A stretch of 64,000 nucleotides of DNA from an uncultured delta proteobacterium (lineage in GTDB: Bacteria; Desulfobacterota; Binatia; UBA9968): assembly GCA_963745835.1 (NCBI GenBank), contig CAVUZH010000013.1, positions 854,926-918,925 of the forward strand, written 5' to 3'. Shown in pieces: positions 38,008 to 53,150 of the stretch. The notes beneath the pieces are model-generated. The model was not told the DNA's origin. It saw only the letters and a program-made list of their open reading frames with translations, and did no database searches. The number at the start of each line of letters is the position of its first letter. The first letter of the stretch is position 1. Made by a program: the position numbers and the translations under genes.

Positions 38008-39052
38008 ATGCAGCTTTTTGGTGGAGCGTGCGCTAAAACCATTCTCGCCGGACTTTCTCGCGACGTTCTTGCTCGGTGAATCGGCGGCTCAAGAGAAAGT
38101 GCTCAATTTGTACACGGCCCGTCACTATTCGACCGATGAATCATTTTACACCGGCTACACCAAGGCCACCGGCATCAAGATCAATCGCATCGAGGGTGGG
38201 GAGGATGCGCTCTTCGAGCGCATCAAAGCCGAGGGCGCCAACAGCCCGGCGGACGTCTTCCTGACCGTTGACGCGGCGCGCTTATGGCGCGCCGAGCAAG
38301 CCGGCATCTTCGCGCCGCTAAAATCTGCGGTGCTTGACAAGCGAATCCCCACCGCCTCGCGCGGCGCCGACGACAAGTGGTTCGGATTCTCCGCGCGCGC
38401 GCGTGTGATCGCTTACGATAAGAGCAAAATTAAACCCGCCGAGCTGGCGCGTTACGAGGATGTGGCCAATGCCAAGTGGAAAGGACAGATTTGCGTGCGA
38501 CCGAGCAGCCATCCCTATAATCTCTCCTTGATATCCAGCCTGATCAATCACCTCGGCGAAGAAAAGGCCACGGACTGGGCGCGCGGCGTGACCGCAAATC
38601 TCGCGCGGCCGCCTCGCGGAGGCGATACCGACCAACTCAAGGGAGTCGAGGTCGGGGAGTGCTCCATCGCGATTTCCAACCATTACTATTATCTCCGGCT
38701 CATGCGCTCGGAAAAACCTGAAGAGCGAGCGCTGGTCGAAAAAGTGGGCATCATTTGGCCCAACCAGGCGGACCGCGGTACCCACATCAATATCTCCGGC
38801 GGAGGTCTGTTACAGAATGCGCCGAATCGGGACGCCGCGCGTCAAGTTCCTCGAATACCTGGCGAGCGACTGCGGCGCAGACATTATTCGCCAACGGCAA
38901 CAACGAGTGGCCAATCGTAAAAGGCGCCAAGTTGAACAATCCGGCGCTCGAATCGTTGGGTCAATTCAAAACCGATTCCGTTGCCGCTGGCGAACCTCGG
39001 CAAATCCCAAGCCGCCGCTCAGCGCATCGCTGACAAAGTTGGTTGGAAATAG
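38008..39052 (+). CDS. Fe3+ ABC substrate-binding protein (FutA/FbpA-like), several frameshifts
   Basis: LNLYTARHY, EGANSPADV, GGDTDQ, N.YY, GTHINISG, end ADKVGWK*; frame changes near 38055, 38840, 38871, 38980. Confidence 0.8.
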
Positions 39053-39085
39053 CGCCATACGTCGGCTCGGACTTGCAGCGGAGCT

Positions 39086-40774
39086 ATGACCGGCGCCGTC
39101 GCGGTCCTTACCGGATATCCAACGGTCTCACTGCCGCTCGGCTCGGCTGGCTCGGCTGGGCGTCGGTGATTATCGCGTGCCTTAGTACTTGCTCCCATCG
39201 CCGCGGTGGTTGTTTAACGTTTTTTTACCGAGCGAAGCCACCTGGTCTCACCTCGCTGTCCACCGTTTTACCCGAGTACATCTGGAACACAGCTGCTGCT
39301 CGATTTGCCTGGTGGCCTTAGGCGTGGTTTTTTTCGGCGTGAGCGCGGCTTGGCTCGTCAGCGCCTATCGTTTTCCCGGCCAACGCGTTCTTGAATGGGC
39401 CCTGGTCCTGCCTCTGGCGATGCCGGCTTACGTCATGGCTTACGCCTATACCGACTGGCTGCAGGCAGCTGGACCGGTCGCAGACACTGCTGCGCGAACT
39501 TACCGGTTGGAAGGTTCGCGAATATTGGTTTCCGGAGATCCGTTCCTTGCCTGGCGCTGCGGCGATGCTGTCGTTCGCGCTTTATCCCTATGTCTATTTG
39601 CTGGCGCGCACTGCGTTTCTCGAACAGTCGCGCACGACTATGGAGGCGGCCCGCCTCGCCGGGTACGGCGGCTTGGGGCAGATTCTTGGCGCGTCGCGCT
39701 GCCTCTGGCCCGCACCGGCATCGTTGCCGGTACCGCTTTGGCCCTGATGGAGGCGCTTGCCGATTTCGGCACGGTTTCCTATTTCGCCGTAAATACGTTC
39801 ACTGCCGGCATCTATCGCGCTTGGCTTTCCCTTGGTGACCCGGTGGCAGCCGGCCAGCTCGCCACCTGCCTGCTGATTTTCGTGCTGCTGATGTTTTCAT
39901 TGAGCGCCGCCATCGCGGCGGCGCTCGCTACGCCGCTAAGCGCACGCCCATGCCGCCGCAGCCACTGCATGGCGCTGCCGGCCGCAATTGCTTCCATCAT
40001 ATGCGCCGTGCCGGTCACGTTTGGTTTTTTAGTACCGGCCGTCATTACTGATAAAGCTCGCCGCTGCCGATCCCGGAGGCCCAGTTCGGCGCGCGTCTTT
40101 ACGGCCTGGTACTGAATACATTCACTTTGGCCGGGGTCGCCGCCCTCGCCGCTGTAGCTATGGCTTTGCTTCTGGCGTATGCGGCGCGAACAGTCAAACA
40201 TCCGCTGGTCCATGGCGCTAATCGTTTTGCCGTGCTCGGTTATGCTCTGCCTGGAGCGGTGATCGCTGTCGGAATTCTTTTGCCGCTTGGGTAAATTCGA
40301 CAACGCCATAGCCGCCTGGATTCGAAGAGCAATTCGGCATCAAGACCGGCCTGCTGCTCACCGGTTCGATCACGGCGCTGATTTACGCTTACGTCGTGCG
40401 CTTTCTTGCCGTCGCCTTTCAGACGCGTTGAAGCTGGACTTACTCGGGTGACGCCCTCGATGGACGACGCCGCGCGCAGCCTCGGTCTCTCTCCCGCGCG
40501 TACCCTTGCGCGTGTACACGTGCCGATCATATGGGGCAGTCTTGCCACCGCGGCGCTGCTCGTCTTCGTCGACGTCATGAAAGAACTGCCCGCGACGTTC
40601 GCCATGCGCCCGTTTAACTTCGACACTCTGGCGGTCGAAGCCTACAACTTGGCCAAGGACGAACGGATCGCCGAGGCCGCAGTGCCTTCGCTGGTCATGG
40701 TCGGCATCGCCCTGCTGCCGTTAATCCTGCTGTCCCGCCAGATCGCCCGCTCGAGCCTGAACAGGTCGTCCTAG
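39086..40774 (+). CDS. Fe3+ ABC permease (FbpB/FutB-like), many frameshifts
   Basis: Pieces in all 3 frames: LPLAMPAYVMAYAY, LYPYVYLLARTAF, LMEALADFGTV, DVMKELPAT..RPFNFDTLA. Confidence 0.78.
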
Positions 40775-40930: not shown

Positions 40931-40964
40931 TTGACAAACTTTTTTCAGTTGCATATACGAAGAT
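40931..40964 (+). promoter_or_regulatory. iron-island promoter/operator copy 2
   Basis: TTGACAAACTTTTTTCAGTTGCATATACGAAGAT; 29/34 identical to the copy at 43225. Confidence 0.7.
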
Positions 40965-40965
40965 C

Positions 40966-42945
40966 GTGAATTCTATGGTGCCAACTATTTTTCCGCGCAG
41001 CGGCTACATAAAGGGGCTCCTCGGCGCCGCCCTTCTGCTGCTCTTGGCGCCTGGCCCTGCTTTGTGGGCAGCGGACGAGGCGAAAAGAGTCGTCGCTCTG
41101 ATCGACTATATCGGCGGCGATTATCGAAACGCGGTGCAAGGCGGGAAAATCGTAAACCCTGACGAGTACCAGGAAATGAGCGAGTTCGCGGCTCGCAGCC
41201 TGGAACTTTTCCGCCAGCTCCAGTCCGCCGAAGGCGACAAGGCGGGTATTCAAAAAGAACTCAACGCACTGGCGGCTCACATCAAAAACAAAACCGGCGA
41301 CGATGCCGTTCCTGAGCTGGCGCAGCAAATTAAAGATCGCCTAATCAAAACGTACAACATTGTCACTTATCCGAAAGCACTACCCAACTACCCCAGCGCA
41401 AGGGCGATTTACCTGGAGAATTGCGCTCAATGTCACGGCGACAGCGGCAAAGGAGACGGGCTCGGCCGCGAGTCGATGAATCCGAAAACACCGCCGCCGG
41501 CCAATTTTACCGACGCGGAATTCATGGCCGGACTCTCGCCGTTCAAAGTCTATAACACCACCACTTTCGGCATCGACAATACGGCGATGGCGTCTTTCGC
41601 GGCGCTGCCAGACGATCAGCGCTGGCAATTGGCCTTCTACGTAATGGCGCTGCGGTTTTCCGCCGAAGCGGCCAGTACCGGAGAGGCATGGCTGAAAGGC
41701 AAGACTCCGCCGGCCGATCTCACCAGCATAGCGACACTGGCAACTTCGTCCGACGACGAGCTTGCGGGGAAAATCAAGAAGAGTCTTCCCGGCGCACCCG
41801 TGAAGGAGGTGCTCGCCTATCTCAGGCGCGGCCTTTTGGAGAAGACATCCAACGATCCGCTGCTGATCGCCCGCACCCTTCTCGGCGAAGCCGCAACGAT
41901 CTACAGCCAGGGCGACAAGGAGAAGGCCTATCAAAAAGCGATCGAGGCCTACCTCGACGGCTTTGAAATGGCCGAGCCGGCGCTCTTCGCCAAGGACGCG
42001 GCTCTGGGACGATCTCTCGAGGCCCAGTTCACGCAATTTCGCAATTCGATTCGCCAGGGAGTTTCCAACGAGGAGATTCAAAACCAGCGCTTGGCGATCG
42101 AGACGAGGCTTGACCAAGCGGCGCAGATGCTGGGCGAGACCAACGACTTCGCCGGTTACTATGCTTTTCTCAATTCAGCGCTGATCATCTTGCGCGAGGG
42201 CCTCGAGGCGGCGCTGATCCTCGCCGCCATCATGGCGATGCTCAGAGTCATGGGCGCGGCGCATGCCGTCCGCTACATCCATTTCGGCTGGATCCTCGCG
42301 CTTGGCGCCGGGGTGGTGACCTGGCTCGCCGCCCAGACGGTGCTCACGTTCAGCGGCCAGCATCGCGAAAGCATGGAGGGCTTCATCTCAATTTTTGCCG
42401 CGGCGGCGCTCTTCTACGTCGGCTACTGGCTGCACACGCGCAGCGAAGCCAGGCGCTGGCAGTCGTTCATTCAGGACAGAGTTCAAAACGTCCTATCGAG
42501 CAAACGCATCCTTGGCCTTGTCGGCATTTCCTTTTTCGCCGTGTATAGGGAAGCCTTCGAAGTAGTGCTGTTCTATCAGGCGCTGTGGCTGCAGAACGCG
42601 GAGAGCCACCAAGCGATCATCGGTGGCTTTCTCGCCGGTGTTGTTGCGTTGCTGGTGGCTACCTTCGCAATCATCAAACTCGGAGTGCGGATCCCACTTA
42701 AATACTTCTTCGGTATCACCGGCACTTTGCTTTACATCATGGCTTTCATCTTTGCCGGCACCGGAATCAACCAGCTGCAGGCAGCAGGCTGGGTGCCCGC
42801 AACTCCCTTGGAATTTCCACCGGCGGTGCCGCTGTTGGGAATTTATCCGACGATGGAGACCTTGGCGGTGCAGGCTTTATTGCTCTGCGCCTTCATCGCG
42901 ACTTCATTTTGGATGGGCCACGAACGAAAAAAGGCGCTTGCGTAG
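40966..42945 (+). CDS. cytochrome c / FTR1 iron permease fusion (PbrT-like)
   Basis: DYIGGDY..AV, CAQCHG heme motif, AYLDGFE..E, two RExxE motifs (REGLE, REAFE). Confidence 0.9.
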   Translation: MNSMVPTIFPRSGYIKGLLGAALLLLLAPGPALWAADEAKRVVALIDYIGGDYRNAVQGGKIVNPDEYQEMSEFAARSLELFRQLQSAEGDKAGIQKELNALAAHIKNKTGDDAVPELAQQIKDRLIKTYNIVTYPKALPNYPSARAIYLENCAQCHGDSGKGDGLGRESMNPKTPPPANFTDAEFMAGLSPFKVYNTTTFGIDNTAMASFAALPDDQRWQLAFYVMALRFSAEAASTGEAWLKGKTPPADLTSIATLATSSDDELAGKIKKSLPGAPVKEVLAYLRRGLLEKTSNDPLLIARTLLGEAATIYSQGDKEKAYQKAIEAYLDGFEMAEPALFAKDAALGRSLEAQFTQFRNSIRQGVSNEEIQNQRLAIETRLDQAAQMLGETNDFAGYYAFLNSALIILREGLEAALILAAIMAMLRVMGAAHAVRYIHFGWILALGAGVVTWLAAQTVLTFSGQHRESMEGFISIFAAAALFYVGYWLHTRSEARRWQSFIQDRVQNVLSSKRILGLVGISFFAVYREAFEVVLFYQALWLQNAESHQAIIGGFLAGVVALLVATFAIIKLGVRIPLKYFFGITGTLLYIMAFIFAGTGINQLQAAGWVPATPLEFPPAVPLLGIYPTMETLAVQALLLCAFIATSFWMGHERKKALA

Positions 42946-43143
42946 ATGGCTAATCAATCTCACGAGCGTGAGCCGGCCGCACCGGCCGCTAGCGAAGATA
43001 ATGCGTTGCGCTGCCATTGCGGCAGCCTGCTAGCGCGCCTCGTGCCAGGCGGAGTCGAGGTGAAATGCCGCAGGTGCAAGCGAACAATCGTCATTGCGCT
43101 CGATGTGGAAGGCCGTGGAAGATGTTCTTCGTCGATGCCGTAA
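42946..43143 (+). CDS. small Com-like zinc-ribbon protein
   Basis: LRCHCGSLLAR....VEVKCRRCKR; ATG immediately follows the FTR1 stop. Confidence 0.72.
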   Translation: MANQSHEREPAAPAASEDNALRCHCGSLLARLVPGGVEVKCRRCKRTIVIALDVEGRGRCSSSMP

Positions 43144-43224
43144 TGCAGCTACGCTCATGAATAGCGCGAGTTTTGTATAGATTGTCTGGCGTTTATGCGT
43201 GCTCACATAAAATAATTATTCGTA

Positions 43225-43258
43225 TTGACAAACAATTTTCATTTGTATAGACGAAGAT
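43225..43258 (+). promoter_or_regulatory. iron-island promoter/operator copy 3
   Basis: TTGACAAACAATTTTCATTTGTATAGACGAAGAT; overlaps TTCGT-N4-ACAAA and TTTGT-N4-ACGAA dyads. Confidence 0.7.
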
Positions 43259-43285
43259 AATTAGCGGCCCGCGATCTTCGAATCC

Positions 43286-43336
43286 AGAGCCCGGAATTGT
43301 GCCACATGGATGGCGGCGCTCCGGGCTTTTATTTTT
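43286..43336 (+). terminator. terminator-like hairpin in the 5' leader of the TonB operon (attenuator candidate)
   Basis: AGCCCGGA(43288-95)/TCCGGGCT(43320-27) stem with inner GCCA/TGGC, followed by TTTTATTTTT, just before the GGGAGG RBS. Confidence 0.65.
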
Positions 43337-43350
43337 GCGGGAGGACACAA

Positions 43351-43563
43351 ATGCAAGGAATCAAATCACGTGAAGGAAAGTGGTCGATTTCATTGTGCAG
43401 CTGCAGCCGCGACACGGCTCATTTTCACTATGGCAACGCCATTCTGCATATCTCGCTCGACGATCTACGCGATCTCGGCATCGCCATGCAGAGCGTTGCG
43501 GAGGATGTCGCGCGCGGCGAGTCGCACAACCGCTTCGAACTCAAGAAAGGTCTGGTCCAGTAG
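43351..43563 (+). CDS. small CxC..HxH hypothetical protein
   Basis: 70 aa from ATG 43351 with GGGAGG RBS: ..ISLCSCSRDTAHFHYGNAILHISL.. Confidence 0.65.
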   Translation: MQGIKSREGKWSISLCSCSRDTAHFHYGNAILHISLDDLRDLGIAMQSVAEDVARGESHNRFELKKGLVQ

Positions 43564-43565
43564 AC

Positions 43566-44174
43566 ATGTCCGAGGTTGTCTCTGTCATTATCAAGGGCGG
43601 GATCGTGATGATTCCGCTGCTCGCTTGTTCGCTCATTTCTCTCACTCTCACCATCGAGCGATTTTTTTTCTGGACCAGAATCAAGTCCCAACGGACCCTT
43701 CAGAACATGCTCGGGCTGGCCGAAGCGGGCGAATTCGATAAAGCCATGAAGCTCGGCAAAGAATCGGCGCACCCGATCGCGCGGGTGCTCGCGGCCGGAT
43801 TGGCGCACCGCAATCCGGCTCCGGCAAAGGCCATGGAAGCGGCGGCCCAGGCGCAGATTCCTGCTCTCAAAAGCCGGCTTGGCATCCTTGATACCATTAT
43901 CACCCTGGCGCCGCTGCTTGGGCTTCTCGGAACGGTTGTCGGCATGATCGGATCTTTCGACATCATGTCCGAGGCCGGCATGGGTCAGCCCCACGCAATT
44001 ACGGGCGGCGTCGCCGAAGCGCTGATCGCCACCGCCAGCGGGCTGCTGATCGCGATTTTAACGCTGATTCCCTACAACTACTTCACTACGCGTGTCGAAA
44101 AAGAGATGGACGCTATGGAGCACTTCAGCTCATCGCTCGAGTTGCTGCTGCACGAACAATCGGGGAAACACTGA
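43566..44174 (+). CDS. exbB: MotA/TolQ/ExbB proton channel
   Basis: GGIVMIPL, APLLGLLGTV.GMI.SF, GVAEALIATA.GL; start MSEVV 43566. Confidence 0.9.
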   Translation: MSEVVSVIIKGGIVMIPLLACSLISLTLTIERFFFWTRIKSQRTLQNMLGLAEAGEFDKAMKLGKESAHPIARVLAAGLAHRNPAPAKAMEAAAQAQIPALKSRLGILDTIITLAPLLGLLGTVVGMIGSFDIMSEAGMGQPHAITGGVAEALIATASGLLIAILTLIPYNYFTTRVEKEMDAMEHFSSSLELLLHEQSGKH

Positions 44175-44587
44175 TGCGAATTCAAAGACGCAATCCCAAG
44201 AAGGCGCGCATCGAGATCATCCCGATGATCGACACGATATTTTTTCTGCTGGTCTTCTTCATGATCTCTACCTTATCGATGGCCCAGTACCGCGGCATGC
44301 CAGTCAATCTGCCCAAGGCCGCGTCAGGCCAGCAAGCCCCGGCCGAGAGCGCTGCCATCACGATCGACAAGGAGTCGAGAATTTTTCTTAACAAAGAGGA
44401 GGTTGACCAAGCCGCGCTCGGCGATTTGCTGCGCCAACACCTCGAGCAGAACTCCGATCTGCTGGTCGTCATCAACGCCGACGACGGTGTCGAGCATGGC
44501 CGTGTGGTGGAAGTCATGGACATCGCCCGTGCCGCCAACGTGGCGAAGATGGCGATCGCGGTGAAACCCAAGGAGCAGAAAAGATGA
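44174..44587 (+). CDS. exbD: biopolymer transport protein ExbD
   Basis: IEIIPMID..F.LL.FFM, VNLPKA, INAD..V.HG.VV.VMD. Confidence 0.9.
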   Translation: MRIQRRNPKKARIEIIPMIDTIFFLLVFFMISTLSMAQYRGMPVNLPKAASGQQAPAESAAITIDKESRIFLNKEEVDQAALGDLLRQHLEQNSDLLVVINADDGVEHGRVVEVMDIARAANVAKMAIAVKPKEQKR

Positions 44588-45432
44588 ATGAGCGCTGGCT
44601 GATTCCATCCTTTGCGGCGTCGTCTCTACTTCATTTGGGACTGATTCCACTCGCCGCCCTTATCCTGCACACCAAGCCGATCAAGCCGGTTACCGTACCA
44701 ATTGAGCTGATCGACGTGTCGCGCGTGGAACCACCAAAAAAGATTGAAGTTGCGCCGCCGCCTCCCCCGCCACCGGCGCCGAAACCAAAACCTAAACCGC
44801 GAGTCACCACGGCGCCAAAATTGTTGTCGAAGCCGGTTTTCGAAACCAGCCCGCTGCCGCCGAGCGGCAATACGAAAGAGGAGGTTACGGAGAAGCCCAA
44901 AGAAGAGCCCCAGCCGCTGGCATCGCTGCCGGAAAAAACCGGCTCGGCGCAAAGTGGCTGGAATAGTGGAACCCAGGCGGTCGAAGCCGAAGGAAGCGCT
45001 GCGGGCGCCGGTAATCTCTTCGGCGAGGGCGATGTCGGTGTGGTCCGGGGCAGCGGTGTCGAAGGCGGCGGCGGTGGAAAAGGAAACTCCGGCTTGGGTC
45101 GCGGAGCCAAAGGCAATGGCGCCGGCGGGGGCGGAACCACGTCGGGAGAAGCACTTTCGGGTCTCGCCCGGCCGCTGGGCGGCTATCAAGTCAAGCCGAG
45201 ATATCCCGAGTCGGCCCGCCGCGCGGGAGTGCAAGGCATTACGACGCTGCGCGTTCGGGTATTGGAAAACGGCCGGGTGGGCGAGGTGCTCGTCGAGCAA
45301 TCGGCGGGATTTCGCGATCTCGATACGGCGGCGATGGAAGCGGTCAAGAAATGGCTCTTCGAACCGGCACGCCGGGGCAAGGATTCGGTATCCGTCTGGG
45401 TCATGCTGCCGGTGAAGTTCGAACTGCATTAG
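44584..45432 (+). CDS. tonB: energy transducer TonB
   Basis: N-terminal S..LH TM, poly-Pro/KP linker, P.YPESARRAG.QG, AV.KW.FEPA. Confidence 0.9.
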   Translation: MNERWLIPSFAASSLLHLGLIPLAALILHTKPIKPVTVPIELIDVSRVEPPKKIEVAPPPPPPPAPKPKPKPRVTTAPKLLSKPVFETSPLPPSGNTKEEVTEKPKEEPQPLASLPEKTGSAQSGWNSGTQAVEAEGSAAGAGNLFGEGDVGVVRGSGVEGGGGGKGNSGLGRGAKGNGAGGGGTTSGEALSGLARPLGGYQVKPRYPESARRAGVQGITTLRVRVLENGRVGEVLVEQSAGFRDLDTAAMEAVKKWLFEPARRGKDSVSVWVMLPVKFELH

Positions 45433-45439
45433 TAATTCG

Positions 45440-45631
45440 ATGGCAGAAAGGCGAATGAATCTCGCTTCGCAGGCGCCTGCCGGTGCGGCGACGTTGACGG
45501 CGGGAGCAAGAAAGCTGCGGATCGAGAGCCAGCGGCTTTTTCAGGGTAACAGCGAAATTGTCATCGTGCACCACGAGGAAGAGTACCACTTGCGTATCAC
45601 CAAGAACGGCAAGCTGATTTTGACCAAGTGA
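45440..45631 (+). CDS. hemP: hemin uptake protein HemP
   Basis: S..LF.G..EI.I.H..E.Y.LRITKNGKLILTK. Confidence 0.88.
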   Translation: MAERRMNLASQAPAGAATLTAGARKLRIESQRLFQGNSEIVIVHHEEEYHLRITKNGKLILTK

Positions 45632-45701
45632 AACATCAACCAGCCAGCCAGCATATGAGACGACTCATGCCAGCCAGCGAAAAAAACAACCTGGAGGAAG
45701 C

Positions 45702-47879
45702 ATGAGTCGACAAGAAAAGCGCGCCAGCGATAGACGGTTGCGGAAGGCGCTCCGCAAGATCAGCCTGGCCGCCGGTGAGGGAGTGGGGCGTGCCGTCGCT
45801 TTTAGCTTCGCGCTGGCAAGCAATGCTTTCGCGGCGGAGCCAAAGCAGGAAGAGACTTTCAACCTGCCGCCGGTCGTCGTGCAAGATCAAAATAACCCTT
45901 ATGTACCACCCGAATCTTCACTATCGCGCATTCCCGTACCGCTGCAAGACGTGCCGCAATCGATCACTGTGGTGCCGCAGCGATTGATGCAGGAGCGCGC
46001 TGCTTCCAGTTTTCAGGACGCGTTGAGAAGTGTTCCCGGTATCAGTTTTCAGGCTGGCGAAGGTGGCGTGCAGGGCAACAACTTAACCTTGCGCGGCTAC
46101 AACGCTCGCAACGATCTTTTTCTCGACGGCGTGCGTGACCAGGGGTCGTATTTTCGCGACATCTTCAATATCGAGTCGATTGAGGTTCTGAAAGGTCCTT
46201 CTTCGCAGTATTTTGGCCGCGGCTCGACCGGCGGCGCCATCAATCAGGTCAGCAAAGTTCCCCAACTTACCCCGAGCTATGGCGGAAATTTTAGTCTTGG
46301 CAACGGCATCTATCTCCGCGGTACGGCCGACATCAACCAGCCGATCACCCCGACGATCGCTTTGCGTTTCAACCTGATGGCACACAAAGACGATATCGTC
46401 GGCAGGGATATCGCGCAGCAAGAACGGCTGGGTTTCGCTCCTTCGATTTCCTTCGGTCTCGGCACTCCAACCCAGTTGAACTTGAGCTACCTTGTTCAAG
46501 GCGAGGACAATATCCCGGACTATGGCGTACCTTACCAACCCGGAAACCCCGGAAGACCTGCTCGTGTAAAGCGTGACAATTTTTACGGCTTCGACCACGA
46601 GGATTACGAGCGAACGCTGCTCAACCTCGGAACGCTGCGGTTGGATCACCGCTTCAACGATATCTTCAGCCTACGGAACACTTTGCGATTTAGCCACAAC
46701 GACCGGGAGCACGAAGTGACGGCGCCCCGCTTCAATGCCGCGACCCCTGGGTTTTTCAACAGAAATCGGCCCAAACGAGATTTGACTGAGACAATTCTCA
46801 GCAATCAAACGGATCTCACCACCAGGTTTGACACTGTGGGCTTGCAGCATACGTTGGTTAGCGGGATCGAGTTTTCCCGAGAGACGTTGGATCGAACCAA
46901 CTATGCTTTTACCGGGATCCCCCAAGCAAACGCTACTAACCCCAATCCGCACGACAGCACCGCCGGAATCAGCCAGCGTGTTTCGGCTCGGTCGGATGGC
47001 AAAGCCTTCGGTTTCGGCATATTCAGCGCGGATCAAATCAAGCTGAATGAATATTTCGACGTCGTCGGCGGCGTTCGCTGGGATTATTTCGACACCGACT
47101 TTGACAATACTGACATCGACGCCGCGAATGTCAGCACTCGGTCCGATTTAGGCCGCACTGACAAGATGTGGAGTTATCGTGGCGGTTTGATTTTCCACCC
47201 GACCCCATTCCAGAGCTACTACTTTTCCTACGCGACAGCATTCAATCCATCCGCCGAAGCGATCCAATTGGCTGCCAATAACGAGGGGACTTCGCCCGAG
47301 AAGAACGAAACCTTTGAGCTGGGCACCAAGCTGCAGTTTTTTAACGGCGCTTTGAGCCTGCAGGGCGCTATTTTTCGAATCAACAAGACCGACGCCCGTG
47401 TAGATGATCCGGACAGCCCGACCGGACAGTTGGTTCTAGAAGGCAAGCAGCGGGTGCAAGGATTCGAGGTCGGCATCGCCGGCCGCCTACTGCCGGATCT
47501 GAACATCTTCGGCGGGTACACCTACCTCGATTCGGAATTTGTCGACTCGCCCGATCCTAACGTCGAAGGCAACAAGCTGTTGAACGTACCGGAGCACAGC
47601 GCGACGTTGTGGACCACCTACGATTTTCTTGAAAAGTGGCAGATCGGCGGCGGCCCTACGTATGTCAGCTCGCGCTACAACAACGCCGCGAACGATGCCC
47701 GGATCGAGGGGCACGTGCTCTGGGACGCGACGATCGCTTACCAACTCACGAAGAATGTTCAATTGCGTCTCAACGGGATCAATCTGACCAATGATCTGTA
47801 TTACTCCAATATCTCAGGGGGACACGTGGTTCCCGGCAACGGGCGAACTTTCATTTTAAGCACGAGTTTCAAATTCTAG
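45702..47879 (+). CDS. TonB-dependent siderophore receptor (Fiu/PiuA-like)
   Basis: PLQDVPQSITVV, LRG..FLDGVRD, IEVLKGPSS..FGRGSTGG.IN, NLTN..Y, terminal F. Confidence 0.9.
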   Translation: MSRQEKRASDRRLRKALRKISLAAGEGVGRAVAFSFALASNAFAAEPKQEETFNLPPVVVQDQNNPYVPPESSLSRIPVPLQDVPQSITVVPQRLMQERAASSFQDALRSVPGISFQAGEGGVQGNNLTLRGYNARNDLFLDGVRDQGSYFRDIFNIESIEVLKGPSSQYFGRGSTGGAINQVSKVPQLTPSYGGNFSLGNGIYLRGTADINQPITPTIALRFNLMAHKDDIVGRDIAQQERLGFAPSISFGLGTPTQLNLSYLVQGEDNIPDYGVPYQPGNPGRPARVKRDNFYGFDHEDYERTLLNLGTLRLDHRFNDIFSLRNTLRFSHNDREHEVTAPRFNAATPGFFNRNRPKRDLTETILSNQTDLTTRFDTVGLQHTLVSGIEFSRETLDRTNYAFTGIPQANATNPNPHDSTAGISQRVSARSDGKAFGFGIFSADQIKLNEYFDVVGGVRWDYFDTDFDNTDIDAANVSTRSDLGRTDKMWSYRGGLIFHPTPFQSYYFSYATAFNPSAEAIQLAANNEGTSPEKNETFELGTKLQFFNGALSLQGAIFRINKTDARVDDPDSPTGQLVLEGKQRVQGFEVGIAGRLLPDLNIFGGYTYLDSEFVDSPDPNVEGNKLLNVPEHSATLWTTYDFLEKWQIGGGPTYVSSRYNNAANDARIEGHVLWDATIAYQLTKNVQLRLNGINLTNDLYYSNISGGHVVPGNGRTFILSTSFKF

Positions 47880-47888
47880 GGATTCACG

Positions 47889-48569
47889 ATGATTGTCCAT
47901 GTTCCCAACGTCCTCAATGCAGAACAACTCGCGCGCTGCCGCGAAATCATGAAGCGCGCGAGCTGGATCGACGGCCGGGTGACAGCGGGGCATCAGTCGG
48001 CACAGGTGAAGCACAACCGGCAACTGGCGGAGAACAGTCCCGAGGCGCGCGAGCTGGGCGATCTCATCGTCGCCGCTCTGGAGCGGAACCCGCTGTTCAT
48101 CACGGCGACACTGCCGCTCCGCGTGTTTCCACCGCTTTTCAACCGATATGAAGGCGGCGAATCTTTCGGCGCCCATCTCGATAACTCGATCCGGCAGATC
48201 CCCGGCACGCTGCTGCGCGTCCGCACTGATATTTCGGCGACGCTATTTCTCAGCGCGCCGGAAGACTACGAAGGCGGCGAACTGGTGATTGACGACATCT
48301 ATGGTGAGCATGCAGTCAAACTCCCCGCCGGAGAGATGGTGGTCTACCCGGCGAGCAGCCTGCACCACGTCAAACCAGTGACGCGCGGCGTGCGTCTGGC
48401 ATCGTTTTTCTGGGTGCAGAGCATGGTGCGCGACGACGGCCATCGTACGCTGCTGTTCGATCTCGACATGGCAATCAACAAGGTCAACCAGGCGCTGCCC
48501 AATCACGGCGGTGTGGTCGAGCTGACCAACTGCTATCACAACCTGCTCCGGCGTTTCGCGGAGGTGTGA
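47889..48569 (+). CDS. piuC: PKHD-type Fe(II)/2OG hydroxylase (PiuC/YbiX)
   Basis: W.DGR.TAG.QS..VK.N.QL, PPLFNRY, HLDN, YEGGEL, SLHHV.PVTRG.R.ASFFW.QS. Confidence 0.9.
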
Positions 48570-48570
48570 C

Positions 48571-49092
48571 GTGATAAAAAAATTACCGGCGATTGCTTTT
48601 CTGCTTCTGTCCGGCTGCGCGGCCTCTGCGCCTCACGATGAAGCGGTTTCTCGCGTTTCCGTCAGCTTCGTCGAGCCGGAGAAATTCACGGACTCGCGGC
48701 GCGGCAAATTGGCGCCCACTTCTGCGGGCGTCCTGCGCGAATTGGAAAATTTTTTGATCGAAACCGGCGGACGCTATCTGCCAGCGACCACGAAACTGAG
48801 CATCCGGGTCACCGACATCGATCTCGCCGGCGACTTCGAATTATTTCGCGGACCGCAAGCGGATCAAGTGCGCATTAACAAAGGCCTGTATCCGCCGCGC
48901 ATCCTGCTCGAATTCGAAGTCATCGATGGCACCGCGGCGGTGGTGAAATCAGGCAAGCGCGACTTGACCGATATCAATTACCAAGTGCGCAACGTTTACC
49001 CGAGAGAAGACTACCTGCGATACGAAAAGGATATCTTGCGCGACTGGCTGCGCGCCGAGCTTGGCGTTTTGAGCGCCGACAACAGTAAGTGA
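48571..49092 (+). CDS. DUF3016-like lipoprotein
   Basis: LSGC lipobox; V.F.EPEKFTD, VTDIDLAG, YPPRI, LRYEK..L.DW. Confidence 0.78.
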   Translation: MIKKLPAIAFLLLSGCAASAPHDEAVSRVSVSFVEPEKFTDSRRGKLAPTSAGVLRELENFLIETGGRYLPATTKLSIRVTDIDLAGDFELFRGPQADQVRINKGLYPPRILLEFEVIDGTAAVVKSGKRDLTDINYQVRNVYPREDYLRYEKDILRDWLRAELGVLSADNSK

Positions 49093-49113
49093 CACGCAAG
49101 GAGATTGTCCAGC

Positions 49114-50931
49114 ATGAAGTTGCTGCACAAAATCATTTTTTGGTCTCATCTGATCGCCGGCATCGTTGCCGGAGCGGTGATTTTTCTCATGTCGGCCACC
49201 GGCGTGATCCTCATGTACGAGCATCAGCTTGTCGAGTACGCCGAGCGCGACGTTCGCGATGTTGTGCCGCCGGCCGGCGCTGCCCGGTTAAGCTTGGACG
49301 AGATAGTCGCTAAAGCGCGCGCGCAAAATCCGGACGCTCGGCCGACTGGCCTGGTTCTGCGAAATCAAGCCACTGCTTCGGTCGCGGTCGGATTCGGTCG
49401 CGAAGGCGCCGTTTACGTCAATCCTTATAACGGCGCAGTGCTGGGCAGGGGCTCGAAGCTCCACGACTGGTTTCACGACGTGATCGATTGGCACCGCTGG
49501 CTCGGGAGGGAAGGCGAGGAGCGAGCGACGGCGCGTGCGATCACCGGGGCCTGCAATCTTGCCTTCTTTTGGCTTGCCATTACCGGAGTCTATCTCTGGT
49601 GGCCGCGCAGTTGGCACTGGCGAGGATTGAAATCCAGTCTTCTTTTCGATCCTCGCCTGCGCGGCAAAGCGCGGGATTGGAACTGGCACAACGTCATCGG
49701 TTTCTGGTCTTCAGGCGTGCTGGTCCTGCTGACGCTCACCGCGGCGGTGATGTCGTATCAGTGGGCCAACGATCTTCTTTACACGTTGACCGGTAGCGAG
49801 CCGCCGCCCAGAGCGCAAGCGCCCGGTCCGACGGCGCAGGCGCAGCAACGCCCCAGCGGGGGCGAAGCGAGCGAGCATAAACCGTTGGCCAGCTTCGATG
49901 CGTTCTTCGCTCGCGCGGAACAGCAGGCGCCCGGCTGGGTAATGACGATGATGCGTATGCCGCCGCGCGTCGACGGCCCGGTCACCTTACTGATCCAGGA
50001 GCGATCGGCGCCCCACATGTTTGCGCGCTCGCAGCTCACCCTGAACCGGACCAGCGCTGAAATCGTCAAGTGGGAACCCTACGCCGCTGCCAGCGCCGGC
50101 CGCAAACTGCGCCTCTGGGTGCGCGGCCTTCACACCGGCGAGGCTCTCGGGTTTATCGGTCAGACCGTCGCTGGTCTGGCGTCGTTCGGCGGCTGCTTCC
50201 TGGTGTGGACCGGAATGGCAATGGCATGGCGGCGCTTTCGCTACCGTAAGCGCGACGCCGAAGATGCGAATAGCGTTCAATATCCCTACGTCGCGGAAGA
50301 AGCCCACCAGGTAAAGGTACAAAGCCTGCAACCCGACATCAGTCAACCATCAAAGGAGCCAGCGAGGATCGAGATGGAAGAAGCGAACGCCACCGCAACC
50401 AATGGCCATGCAGAGAACGGCAACCAAGATATGCGCGCTCAATGGAGCAACCAGCCCTACAGCCGCGATTCGGTTTTGATCCTCTACGGTACCGTCACCG
50501 GAACCGCCGAGACGCTGGCGCATAAACTGGCGGCGGAGCTGCAATGGACGGGCATCACAACGCGGGTGCGTGATATGGCCCATTGTCAATCTAGCGTGTT
50601 GACTCAGGTAGGCTGCGTGTTGCTCGTGGTCAGTACCTACGGCGATGGCGAACCGCCAGAAGATGCCGTCCCGTTTTGGAAAGCGGTGGTGCACGGCAAC
50701 GATCTCGACTTACGAGGCGTTCGCTACTCCGTACTCGCACTCGGTAATACGACCTTTGATCACTTCTGCAAGTGCGGCCGCGAGTTCGATGCCGCGCTGG
50801 AACGGCACGGCGCTATGCGCATCTATCCACGTGTCGATTGCGATGTCGATTACGAGGTGGCGGCCAAGCATTGGCTCGATGGGGTGCGGGCGCATCTCAC
50901 TCTGCAGGAGCACAGCGCCTTGCCTGCGTAA
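49114..50931 (+). CDS. PepSY-associated TM protein fused to a flavodoxin domain (PiuB-like)
   Basis: FWSHL..G, YVNPY.G, WHRWL, WHNVIG, LHTGE; then ILYGTVTGTAE, STYGDGEPP, LGN..FDHFC. Confidence 0.85.
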   Translation: MKLLHKIIFWSHLIAGIVAGAVIFLMSATGVILMYEHQLVEYAERDVRDVVPPAGAARLSLDEIVAKARAQNPDARPTGLVLRNQATASVAVGFGREGAVYVNPYNGAVLGRGSKLHDWFHDVIDWHRWLGREGEERATARAITGACNLAFFWLAITGVYLWWPRSWHWRGLKSSLLFDPRLRGKARDWNWHNVIGFWSSGVLVLLTLTAAVMSYQWANDLLYTLTGSEPPPRAQAPGPTAQAQQRPSGGEASEHKPLASFDAFFARAEQQAPGWVMTMMRMPPRVDGPVTLLIQERSAPHMFARSQLTLNRTSAEIVKWEPYAAASAGRKLRLWVRGLHTGEALGFIGQTVAGLASFGGCFLVWTGMAMAWRRFRYRKRDAEDANSVQYPYVAEEAHQVKVQSLQPDISQPSKEPARIEMEEANATATNGHAENGNQDMRAQWSNQPYSRDSVLILYGTVTGTAETLAHKLAAELQWTGITTRVRDMAHCQSSVLTQVGCVLLVVSTYGDGEPPEDAVPFWKAVVHGNDLDLRGVRYSVLALGNTTFDHFCKCGREFDAALERHGAMRIYPRVDCDVDYEVAAKHWLDGVRAHLTLQEHSALPA

Positions 50932-50947
50932 ACTCAAGGAGAGCCTC

Positions 50948-51625
50948 ATGTCAAAGACGATTTTGCTCGTTGTTGTGCTCGTGACTCTCTTTCTTGTTTC
51001 TTCAGCCCGCGCCCACTACGTCTGGCTCGAACGCGACGGCGATGGACCGGCGCGTGCCTACCTCGGCGAGTGGGTCGACGACATCCGCGAGAAAACCGGC
51101 GGCATGCTCGATCGGATCAAAGCCCCGCGGGTTTTACTCGGCGCGAATACTGAATCCCTGCCGGTCAAGCGGAACGAAAATAACCTGGAGTTCCAGACCA
51201 AAGGACGCGGCGACGTTCGGCTTGTGGAAGACAGCATGCCGCCGCGGGAGGACAAGGAGAAAGGCGGCATTACAAAGACGATCTATTACGCCAAGGCGGG
51301 TCGCAGTGAAACCGCCGCTAAGCTCGACTTGGAGTTCGTGCCGACGGCGCCGAACGGTAATATCTTGGTGCTCATGTTCCGCGGCGCGCCGCTGCCGAAG
51401 GCCGAGGTGACCATCGTCGGTCCCTCCAAATGGCAGAAGCCTTTGGTCACCAACGACAAAGGTCAGATCACTTTGCCCACGCCCTGGGCCGGAAGGTACG
51501 TGCTGGAGGTCACGCATTTCGACGAGAAGGCCGGCGGCGACAACGAGAAGTTTGATCGCATGCGCCACATCTCATCCCTCTCATTCGTACATCGGGACGG
51601 AATTCGTTGGTCCGACAAACAGTAA
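50948..51625 (+). CDS. DUF4198-like exported protein
   Basis: Signal peptide ending ARA-HYVW, F.G.PL..A.V, T..KG......PWAG.Y; AGGAG RBS before ATG 50948. Confidence 0.75.
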   Translation: MSKTILLVVVLVTLFLVSSARAHYVWLERDGDGPARAYLGEWVDDIREKTGGMLDRIKAPRVLLGANTESLPVKRNENNLEFQTKGRGDVRLVEDSMPPREDKEKGGITKTIYYAKAGRSETAAKLDLEFVPTAPNGNILVLMFRGAPLPKAEVTIVGPSKWQKPLVTNDKGQITLPTPWAGRYVLEVTHFDEKAGGDNEKFDRMRHISSLSFVHRDGIRWSDKQ

Positions 51626-52673: not shown

Positions 52674-53150
52674 TTAGCCCTTTTTGAATATCTGCTGCGC
52701 CAGGTAGTTCTCATAGCCAACTTCCTTGATCTGATGAAACTGCGTTTCGATCCAATCGATATGGTGCTCTTCATCAACGACTATATGTTCGAGCAACTCC
52801 CGGGTGGCATCGTCGTGAGCATCGAGGCAGGTTTTTATTCCGGGCCTGAGAACCACCAGCGCCGCCTGCTCCAACCCGAGATCGTTCTCTAATTGCTGCT
52901 TGACGTTCGATCCCACCTGGATCTTGTCATAAGCTTGAACGTTCGGCGTGCCTTCGAGAAAAAGAATCCGTTCCACGATTTGATCCGCATGCTTCATTTC
53001 ATCGATGGACTCATTCCAGGCGTGTTCGCCGAGCACGGCATAGCCCCAGTTCTTGCACATTTTCGCGTGAATGAAATACTGATTAATGCCGGTGAGCTCC
53101 TTGCGCAATACCTCGTTCAACACCTTGATGACGTCGGGATTCCCTTTCAT
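52674..53150 (-). CDS. bfr: bacterioferritin
   Basis: MKG...VI..LN..L..ELTGINQYF.H, ESIDEMKHAD, EEHHIDWIETQ. Confidence 0.96.
   Translation of the reverse strand: MKGNPDVIKVLNEVLRKELTGINQYFIHAKMCKNWGYAVLGEHAWNESIDEMKHADQIVERILFLEGTPNVQAYDKIQVGSNVKQQLENDLGLEQAALVVLRPGIKTCLDAHDDATRELLEHIVVDEEHHIDWIETQFHQIKEVGYENYLAQQIFKKG

Follow-up and report, generated by a model that had tools for sequence, protein, structure and literature searches.

Organization of the locus

The 64,000-nucleotide (nt) window analysed in this work is a single stretch of genomic DNA from an uncultured delta proteobacterium (GTDB lineage Desulfobacterota; Binatia; UBA9968), spanning positions 854,926 to 918,925 of contig CAVUZH010000013.1 in assembly GCA_963745835.1. 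It carries a gene for an FTR1-family iron permease fused to a cytochrome c domain, a 65-amino-acid (aa) zinc-finger mini-gene resembling com of phage Mu, a leader with a conserved RNA element and a terminator-like hairpin, and a ten-gene exbB/tonB operon. The mini-gene and the RNA element, one copy of each in this genome, recur together in related bacteria and are the subject of this report. The ATG of the mini-gene abuts the TAG stop of the permease gene, and about 80 nt separate its open reading frame (ORF) from the TTGACA of the leader promoter.

A first-pass annotation made from the letters alone had proposed that a Com-like protein antiterminates the operon, and this overall interpretation is partly supported by our comparative sequence analysis. 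Its description of the locus holds in most respects: the four-cysteine ORF directly behind the FTR1 stop is a member of a conserved family, the TTGACA promoter at 43225 is present and conserved in relatives, the leader of about 90 nt does contain a GC-rich hairpin and a U-tract before the ribosome-binding site, and Pfam confirms the order of the ten-gene orf-exbB-exbD-tonB-hemP operon behind the ATG at 43351. The leader is also conserved in homologous loci, where both element and promoter recur. The four proposed protein-binding units (GCGGCCC, GCGATCT, CGAATCC and AGAGCCC) do not form a conserved pattern and give way to two units, GGCC[A/C]G[A/C]G and CCAGAGCC (Table 1).

A family of Com-like zinc-finger proteins

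Judged by its conservation, the mini-gene is a real, widely conserved gene whose products form a sharply delimited family. A protein search returned 151 homologues of 35-114 aa, some of which bear the name 'phage FluMu protein Com' given by JGI (Joint Genome Institute); the named homologues come from metagenome-assembled genomes of Binatia, Myxococcota and Polyangia, and the nearest Atlas clusters, from Myxococcota and Nitrospirota, are automatically named as Com family. An alignment of 26 members has 19 invariant columns, including RC.CGSLLAR and KCRRCKR, and all four cysteines are invariant. Pairwise BLASTP of the window protein against Mu Com, whose sequence was taken from the public Mu record, gave E = 5e-05 as a single comparison, with 12 identities over 33 residues that span the entire finger, and hhalign of the family profile against Mu Com gave a probability of 89.6% (E = 1.9e-06). 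A fold model of the window protein reaches a predicted local distance difference test score (pLDDT) of 75-85 over residues 20-55 and has three strands; Foldseek found no match to it in the PDB at E up to 0.001, and a search of the PDB by sequence found no Com structure on record. We regard the product as Com-like, i.e., as an apparent remote rather than strong relative of the zinc finger of Mu Com and not as a demonstrated member of that family. The identity given in the first-pass annotation is upheld as far as remote homology goes and fails at the suggested comparison with the hidden Markov model (HMM) of the Com family, as discussed below.

The gene is closely tied to iron transport. Among 20 fetched loci it lies directly behind the FTR1/cytochrome c gene on the same strand in 19, and just upstream of that gene in the remaining one (G013, locus L026), while the downstream side is variable, with the exbB operon, DUF4198 or other genes. 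The distance from the FTR1 stop to the Com-like start is -4 to +13 nt in 15 of the 19 loci (a simple start rule gave no start in the other four), which suggests that the two genes are translationally coupled. Fusion of the Com domain to FTR1 was considered and rejected; the two are separate ORFs with the start spacing just given.

A conserved RNA element at the foot of a terminator-like hairpin

Conservation of the intergenic DNA extends to three relatives, including one from another genus, and among the regions behind Com in 20 loci an element of about 30 nt recurs in which a 3-bp stem is flanked by two CC-N-G(A/C)G units. It begins with GGCC-[A/C]-G-[A/C]-G and a short stem-loop, followed by CCAGAGCC-CGG and, after a variable upper stem, by CCGGGCU and a U-tract; GGAGG and a start codon usually come next. 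In the alignment of 31 sequences (A3), columns G7, G8, C9, C10, G12, G14 and C25 through C33 are invariant, and unit 2 reads CCAGAGCC in 50 of 55 rows of alignment A5 and in 48 of 63 rows of A6; one natural variant of the element has a 3-nt word spacer. The middle pair of the short stem P2 is GC in 33, AU in 11, GU in 10, UA in one and another combination in one of 56 sequences, with 98.8% of cells pairing, and in the metagenome set it is GC in 31, AU in 18, GU in 13 and another combination in one, counts that come from alignments fitted to their own structure model, which favours structure. Sliding the partner by one column as a control lowered the pairing to about 60%. Sites of the CsrA type were dropped by eye, the units having no GGA in the window.

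The stem pairs of the hairpin are likewise conserved and covarying, and both stem and T columns are kept in the 31 and in the 56 sequences. As expected of an attenuator, a GC-rich stem followed directly by a U-tract lies between the promoter and the first gene, and an alternative fold, formed by unit 2 and a GGC/GCC helix, uses positions 43286-43291, which are the foot of the terminator. The terminator segment folds at -24.9 kcal/mol, and the isolated 5' element, folding as GGC/GCC plus P2 at -4.7 kcal/mol, is a weak alternative on its own. Blocking 43266-43291 from pairing leaves only the upper stem, detached from the U-tract, and raises the energy of the leader from -36.1 to -12.9 kcal/mol. 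The whole leader of 99 nt folds only modestly better than its shuffles (z = -1.77), and the argument for a function is based on conservation and not on energy. The 30 nt upstream are more conserved than the top of the terminator stem, and they persist across families and in GC-rich variants that have no U-tract.

These GC-rich metagenome variants differ from the window's family, where the hairpin is followed by a U-tract, in that, as read from sequence and folding, the 3' arm includes a GGAG-like ribosome-binding site and extends to the start codon or close to it. Such a hairpin looks like a translational trap of the kind known from Mu mom instead of a terminator. In loci L221, L223, L217, L230, L209 and L202, about 30-150 nt after Com, the GC-rich element was seen as GGCCAGCG ... 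CCCCGAGCCC followed by a hairpin of this kind.

Linkage of the protein and the RNA element across genomes

The distribution was examined in 90 genomes of the window's own family, with a covariance model for the element. A Com-like match is present in 56 and the element in 53 of them; both occur in 52 genomes and neither in 33, four carry Com alone (G004, G081 and, with weak Com matches, G014 and G062) and one, G005, carries the motif alone, together with frameshifted, out-of-frame remnants of Com. The motif lies 33-173 nt downstream of 50 of the 63 Com matches, on the same strand (47 of the 56 genomes). The distances form two groups: in 33 of the 50 cases they are 33-83 nt, which leaves no room for a promoter, and in the others they are 115-173 nt, and the conserved promoter stands between Com and the motif as it does in the window. 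In 80 metagenome loci, chosen as those most similar to the Com query, the motif follows Com at 11-188 nt in 67, and two loci were too short to be assessed. The first-pass annotation had raised the question whether the homologues accompany iron-uptake operons with the same leader; that Com is followed by the RNA element stands, while the gene proved to be tied first to FTR1/cytochrome c and not to the TonB operon, and the motif precedes many other iron genes.

Beyond the family, a phylum-wide sample of 151 genomes contained four others with Com, none of them with a strict motif match. In G181, from another family, a variant motif follows Com with 29.6 bits; G202, from another class, has a weak match after Com (16.8 bits, E = 0.28), where GGCCAGAG ... 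CAGAGCC was seen by eye; G215 has a weak match 1.2 kb from Com, and behind Com of G248 there was no motif match. In G181 and G202, Com does not adjoin FTR1 and the candidate element, weak in G202, is still directly behind Com. In G006, a close relative (L002, 1496-1898), the Com frame is broken with at least one cysteine codon replaced, and the motif has lost unit 1 and scores 36.7 bits, compared with 73 in the window; this single case could be co-decay or could stem from errors in a 30-contig assembly.

The tallies for Com, motif and 70-aa ORF in the 90 genomes include the unpublished genomes G018, G051 and G072, for which the permission of the depositors is required. G018 supplies three rows of A3 and hence of the model, as well as an example of a motif 7 kb from Com, and G051 contributes rows to A5; no conclusion rests on these three genomes alone. 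The loose pattern GGCCMGMGN{6,13}CCAGAGCCCG matched at least 120 stretches from unrelated GC-rich taxa in 596 Gb of contigs and is uninformative about the distribution.

Genes and promoters associated with the motif copies

Copies away from Com make up 29 of the 79, many of which are immediately preceded by a promoter of their own and immediately followed by a gene start, and up to four copies occur within one island. Most of 56 sampled copies have a Shine-Dalgarno (SD) sequence and a start codon within a few to about 30 nt. The genes behind these 56 include ferritin-like proteins, HemP, DUF4198, DUF6662, cupredoxin-like proteins, a 522-aa Porin_O_P-like protein and three families of small ORFs of 70, about 95 and about 90 aa. 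None of the 20 fetched loci has a motif match upstream of FTR1. Second copies of Com that are unattached to FTR1 are preceded by the motif (L019, 7181-7265, in G082; L212, 1375-1459; L257, 81-165), which hints at positive autoregulation.

As for the small ORFs, relatives of the 70-aa ORF (66-71 aa; window 43351-43563, L017, L019, L035 and others) always stand directly behind the motif and usually before exbB. In some genomes its place before exbB is taken by the family of about 95 aa that begins with ...PWIEKAW..., and the family of about 90 aa containing ...LRSLRWG.G.GWY... is found behind motif copies; both lack a Pfam match. The 70-aa ORF was also considered as a general trans-acting factor and rejected, with a presence in 22 of the 90 family genomes versus 53 with the motif.

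In relatives the TTGACA of the leader promoter is kept, as is a TATA(C/G)ACGAA element that follows it after 17 nt, and a TTGACAAA...TATACGAA pattern precedes about 20 motif copies. The leader transcript probably starts near 43260. A scanner for consensus promoters and terminators flagged neither the leader promoter nor the terminator on the forward strand, the -10 being non-consensus and the loop exceeding 8 nt. The FTR1 gene has a promoter of the same type (TTGACAAAC, 17-nt spacer, TATACGAAGAT; 40931-40968) and no RNA motif behind it in the window; because only 6 nt separate the end of its -10 from the GTG at 40966, the FTR1 mRNA may be leaderless or nearly so. The AT-rich spacer common to both promoters often has a CAAAT-N7-ATTTG-like dyad in relatives, which may be a candidate operator and is not assignable to Fur, DtxR or another repressor. 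Where the motif precedes ferritin-like genes (L023, 594-683; L164, L165, L168 and L169), the upstream 30 nt contain a sigma-54-type promoter sequence, TGGCAC-N5-GTGCT, in place of the TTGACA type, and the hairpins have no clean U-tract.

Two further features of the window flank the island. An ABC (ATP-binding cassette)-type uptake system upstream of the FTR1 unit (38018-40774) comprises a solute-binding protein (38018-38920) and a permease that is seemingly distributed among several frames, including a 308-aa ORF without a Pfam match and a 122-aa BPD_transp_1 fragment; the split may reflect assembly frameshifts or a decayed gene. A ferritin-like gene (52674-53150, reverse strand) lies just past the operon end on the opposite strand and has no motif copy in this genome.

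Table 1. Features of the iron island in the window and loci of the small ORF families in relatives
Feature	Position	Strand	Remarks
Promoter-like element of the FTR1/Com unit	40931..40959	+	TTGACA 40931-40936, 17-nt spacer, TATACG 40954-40959; putative function
FTR1-family iron permease fused to cytochrome c domain, 659 aa	40966..42945	+	Pfam FTR1 4.5e-25, Cytochrom_C 4.2e-09; NCBIfam EfeU/Ftr1
Com-like zinc-finger mini-gene, 65 aa	42946..43143	+	Invariant core RCxCGSLLARxVPGGVExKCRRCKR
Promoter-like element of the leader/operon	43225..43253	+	TTGACA 43225-43230, 17-nt spacer, TAGACG 43248-43253; kept in G005, G006, G018 and many other loci
RNA element, unit 1, GGCCCGCG in the window	43266..43273	+	Consensus GGCC-A-G(A/C)G; A3 columns
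Short stem P2	43273..43284	+	Pairs G43273-C43284, A43274-U43283, U43275-A43282; loop CUUCGA; covariation
RNA element, unit 2, CCAGAGCC	43284..43291	+	AGAGCC portion is the foot of the terminator 5' arm; invariant in A3
Terminator-like hairpin	43286..43329	+	5' arm 43286-43295, 3' arm 43320-43329, upper stem internally paired; -24.9 kcal/mol
U-tract TTTTATTTTT	43327..43336	+	T columns nearly invariant in A3
SD sequence GGGAGGA of the first operon gene	43339..43345	+	GGAGG kept at the same place in relatives
First operon gene, 70 aa	43351..43563	+	ATG 43351; pattern RW-x-I/V-x-x-C ... T-x-H-x-H-Y-G; without Pfam match
Rest of operon: exbB, exbD, tonB, hemP, TonB-dependent receptor, PiuC-like hydroxylase, DUF3016, PepSY_TM/flavodoxin, DUF4198	43566..51625	+	Pfam; start of the last gene uncertain
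ORFs of the ~95-aa and ~90-aa families	L018:6495-6773, L024:14057-14350, L172:575-853, L175:2283-2579; L031:6541-6801, L024:7311-7610, L182:3490-3768		Also the ORF directly downstream of Com in L159

Discussion

The conserved gene, the motif, their linkage, the covarying stem, the overlap of element and hairpin and the remote homology to Com were observed or computed. On balance we favour the reading in which the Com-like protein binds the element and opens the hairpin, leading to antitermination of the exbB/tonB operon. The protein would be made from the motif-free FTR1 unit and translated right behind the permease. In its absence the strong hairpin would form and most transcripts would stop at the U-tract, before the ribosome-binding site. 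Once the FTR1 unit is transcribed and translated, the protein would accumulate and bind both units, keeping AGAGCC off the 3' arm so that RNA polymerase could read into the operon; since the element overlaps the 5' arm of the terminator, its occupied state should favour read-through. Because in the GC-rich lineages the element abuts an SD hairpin, one site appears to serve two kinds of expression platform, i.e., a terminator here and an SD-holding hairpin there. The binding itself, its activating direction and a link to metal status all belong to the conditional part of this proposal. It is a more doubtful idea, which we mention tentatively, that the finger itself is a metal sensor in which occupancy of CxC...CxxC by Zn2+ or Fe2+ decides on RNA binding.

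Several observations weigh against antitermination by the Com-like protein. Regarding the protein, the first cysteine pair is CxC and not CxxC in all 26 aligned members; the Pfam model of the Com zinc ribbon (PF10122) does not match the window protein at E up to 10 or any of the 26 homologues at E up to 1, while Mu Com itself, used as a control, matches it at 2.7e-09; searches of NCBIfam and Pfam with the protein returned only sub-threshold generic zinc ribbons (Zn_ribbon_4, 0.055; TIGR02098, 0.016), and tblastn against 50,697 phage records gave a single match at E = 2 and no phage Com. Regarding the RNA, unit 1 tolerates GCG, which is present in the window and lacks the GA dinucleotide critical for Mu Com, the word spacer here is 1 nt versus 2-3 nt in the Mu site, and the pair counts carry the bias of the fitted alignments. 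The assembled contigs of four RNA runs cover only 43572-44200, within exbB, and do not reach the leader. The clearest exception to the pairing is G004 (L020, 6949-7644), of the same genus as the window, where the 42-aa Com-like gene is intact and the exbB operon retains the conserved promoter, and where the RNA element was found neither at that operon nor elsewhere in the assembly; G081 has only a 19-bit motif variant, and 11 of the 78 assessable metagenome loci, a set selected for similarity to the query, have no motif match. The family genomes are kin, and the co-occurrence counts do not represent independent events; co-occurrence may be the inheritance of one iron island in which all parts travel together. 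Finally, a small element with interchangeable platforms (a terminator, or SD sequestration in the GC-rich variants) is also the signature of a riboswitch.

A riboswitch, in which a ligand reporting iron status (e.g., Fe2+, haem or a siderophore-related compound) would bind the GGC/GCC plus P2 internal-loop hairpin and compete with the terminator, and the Com-like gene would merely be the last of the preceding unit, is in our opinion unlikely. The core is small, nearly invariant and provided with a covarying stem, the isolated 5' element does fold into the GGC/GCC plus P2 hairpin, and the element precedes many different iron-related genes behind sigma-70-like and sigma-54-like promoters. Against this, Rfam 15 run on 42000-44500 gave no match to the leader at E up to 10, the antiterminator helix would have only 3 + 3 Watson-Crick pairs (-4.7 kcal/mol), and the conserved letters form a Com-type word in two direct repeats and not a pocket-like fold. 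Moreover, the element tracks the Com-like gene and no single downstream gene, with Com in 52 of the 53 motif genomes and a remnant of it in the 53rd, and it stands directly after Com even where FTR1 is not adjacent (G181, G202). The same two genomes bear on the improbable case that another trans factor, i.e., a small ORF of the iron island or a general RNA-binding protein, binds the element, and that the Com-like protein serves FTR1, for example as a cytoplasmic metal-binding partner. The tie of Com to FTR1/cytochrome c in 20 of 20 loci and the start spacing in 15 of 19, which suggests coupling and perhaps a stoichiometric partner, would fit such a role, as would the three uncharacterised small-ORF families right behind motif copies; yet Com homologues with the motif exist without an adjacent FTR1, the basic KCRRCKR finger aligns to an RNA-binding finger, the 70-aa ORF falls well short of the motif in distribution, and the other small ORFs follow still fewer of the sampled copies.

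The spacing between Com and the element bears on two further explanations. In the 33 cases at 33-83 nt the element follows Com with no promoter between them and therefore ends that unit, as it would if the hairpin were a plain terminator of the FTR1/Com transcript, an alternative already named in the first-pass annotation, and the upstream conservation were due to a shared cassette or recent ancestry. We nevertheless hold this absence of regulation to be very improbable: in the window the conserved promoter sits between Com and the hairpin, and because of this position the operon transcript must pass through the hairpin; 29 of the 79 copies are away from Com, many of them between a promoter of their own and a gene start; and the upstream 30 nt, which outconserve the stem top, are kept across families and in GC-rich variants without a U-tract. 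The least probable of the explanations is an iron-regulated small RNA of the RyhB/PrrF kind: the leader, some 75 nt in length, would have a promoter and a terminator of its own, act in trans through its conserved single-stranded words and feed the operon by read-through. The promoter about 10 nt before the element and the terminator at its end in the window would suit this, and the conserved words could act as a seed. However, the same 33 of the 50 Com-adjacent copies are too close to Com for a promoter element of about 30 nt, up to four copies occur in one island, most of the 56 sampled copies lie just a few to about 30 nt ahead of an SD sequence and a start codon, and the GC-rich variants lack the U-tract.

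If the pairing of the Com-like protein and the element holds, bacterial iron regulation, in which Fur-type repressors and small RNAs otherwise predominate, would gain a protein-operated RNA switch. A relative of Com has seemingly been recruited by cellular genomes and paired with an element before many genes for iron uptake and storage, and the module looks like a previously undescribed switch of this type for iron acquisition in uncultured soil bacteria. A search of open PMC and bioRxiv, with subscription journals and supplements outside its scope, returned no report of a chromosomal Com-like iron-gene regulator or of the RNA element. Should the finger indeed be the sensor, it would be a protein-based metallo-riboregulator that reads metal status after transcription initiation; a whole iron-acquisition regulon would be switched via one set of RNA words, with terminators or ribosome-binding-site traps, and the Com fold would have its first cellular, non-phage job and represent a new class of antiterminators. 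A finger of 60 aa and an RNA of 30 nt would also provide a compact model for sequence-specific RNA recognition, and the sharply defined element, cleanly found by the covariance model, can already be used to annotate iron regulons in uncultured soil lineages.

Comparison with known systems

The closest comparison is Com/mom of phage Mu. According to a study of this system (PMC6483171), Mu Com recognises CC(N)2-3GAG in a hairpin loop; selection in vitro by SELEX (systematic evolution of ligands by exponential enrichment) gave the bipartite site NGAGNNCC(N)2-3GAGNNCCNN, in which two GAG(N)2CC cores flank a 3-4-nt stem; the GA dinucleotide is critical for binding, and the site lies beside the translation-inhibition hairpin of mom. 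Both proteins have about 60 aa and an N-terminal four-cysteine finger with the common pattern ...RC..C..LL......vEvkC.RCKR.i.i, both are encoded immediately upstream of the regulated RNA site, and both sites consist of CC...GAG words around a short stem beside an inhibitory hairpin (the Mu site again as described in PMC6483171). The element studied here reads CC-N-GAG, a 3-bp covarying stem and CC-N(1-3)-GAG-CC next to or inside the hairpin, and by analogy it would be bound by the Com-like protein, with activation by hairpin opening as the expected outcome in both systems. The present system differs in its chromosomal iron-uptake context, where Mu Com belongs to a phage late operon, in the unmatched Pfam Com model and the CxC pair, and in a hairpin that appears to be a transcription terminator and not a start-codon trap, the GC-rich relatives looking like SD traps. 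Com is known from one phage system, in which it activates the translation of a single gene, whereas one protein here would serve several RNA copies and thus a regulon.

Protein-dependent antitermination leaders of the ANTAR/EutV-NasR, BglG/SacY RAT (ribonucleic antiterminator), HutP and TRAP types also resemble the leader described here. A short structured site overlaps the 5' arm of a terminator, and several copies stand before the units of one pathway, with binding in our case proposed by analogy. In contrast to these systems, the candidate regulator is a single small zinc finger of unrelated fold without a sensor domain; the RNA site is different and without an Rfam match, and there is no known ligand-sensing partner.

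Likeness to Fur-controlled operons and to the RyhB/PrrF small RNAs lies in the conserved AT-rich promoter/operator before iron genes and in a short RNA with a terminator upstream of uptake genes. Unlike in those systems, the operator here is not identified as a Fur box, and the RNA is a cis leader, directly before the SD sequence and start codon, which recurs in one island and has a protein gene as its partner.

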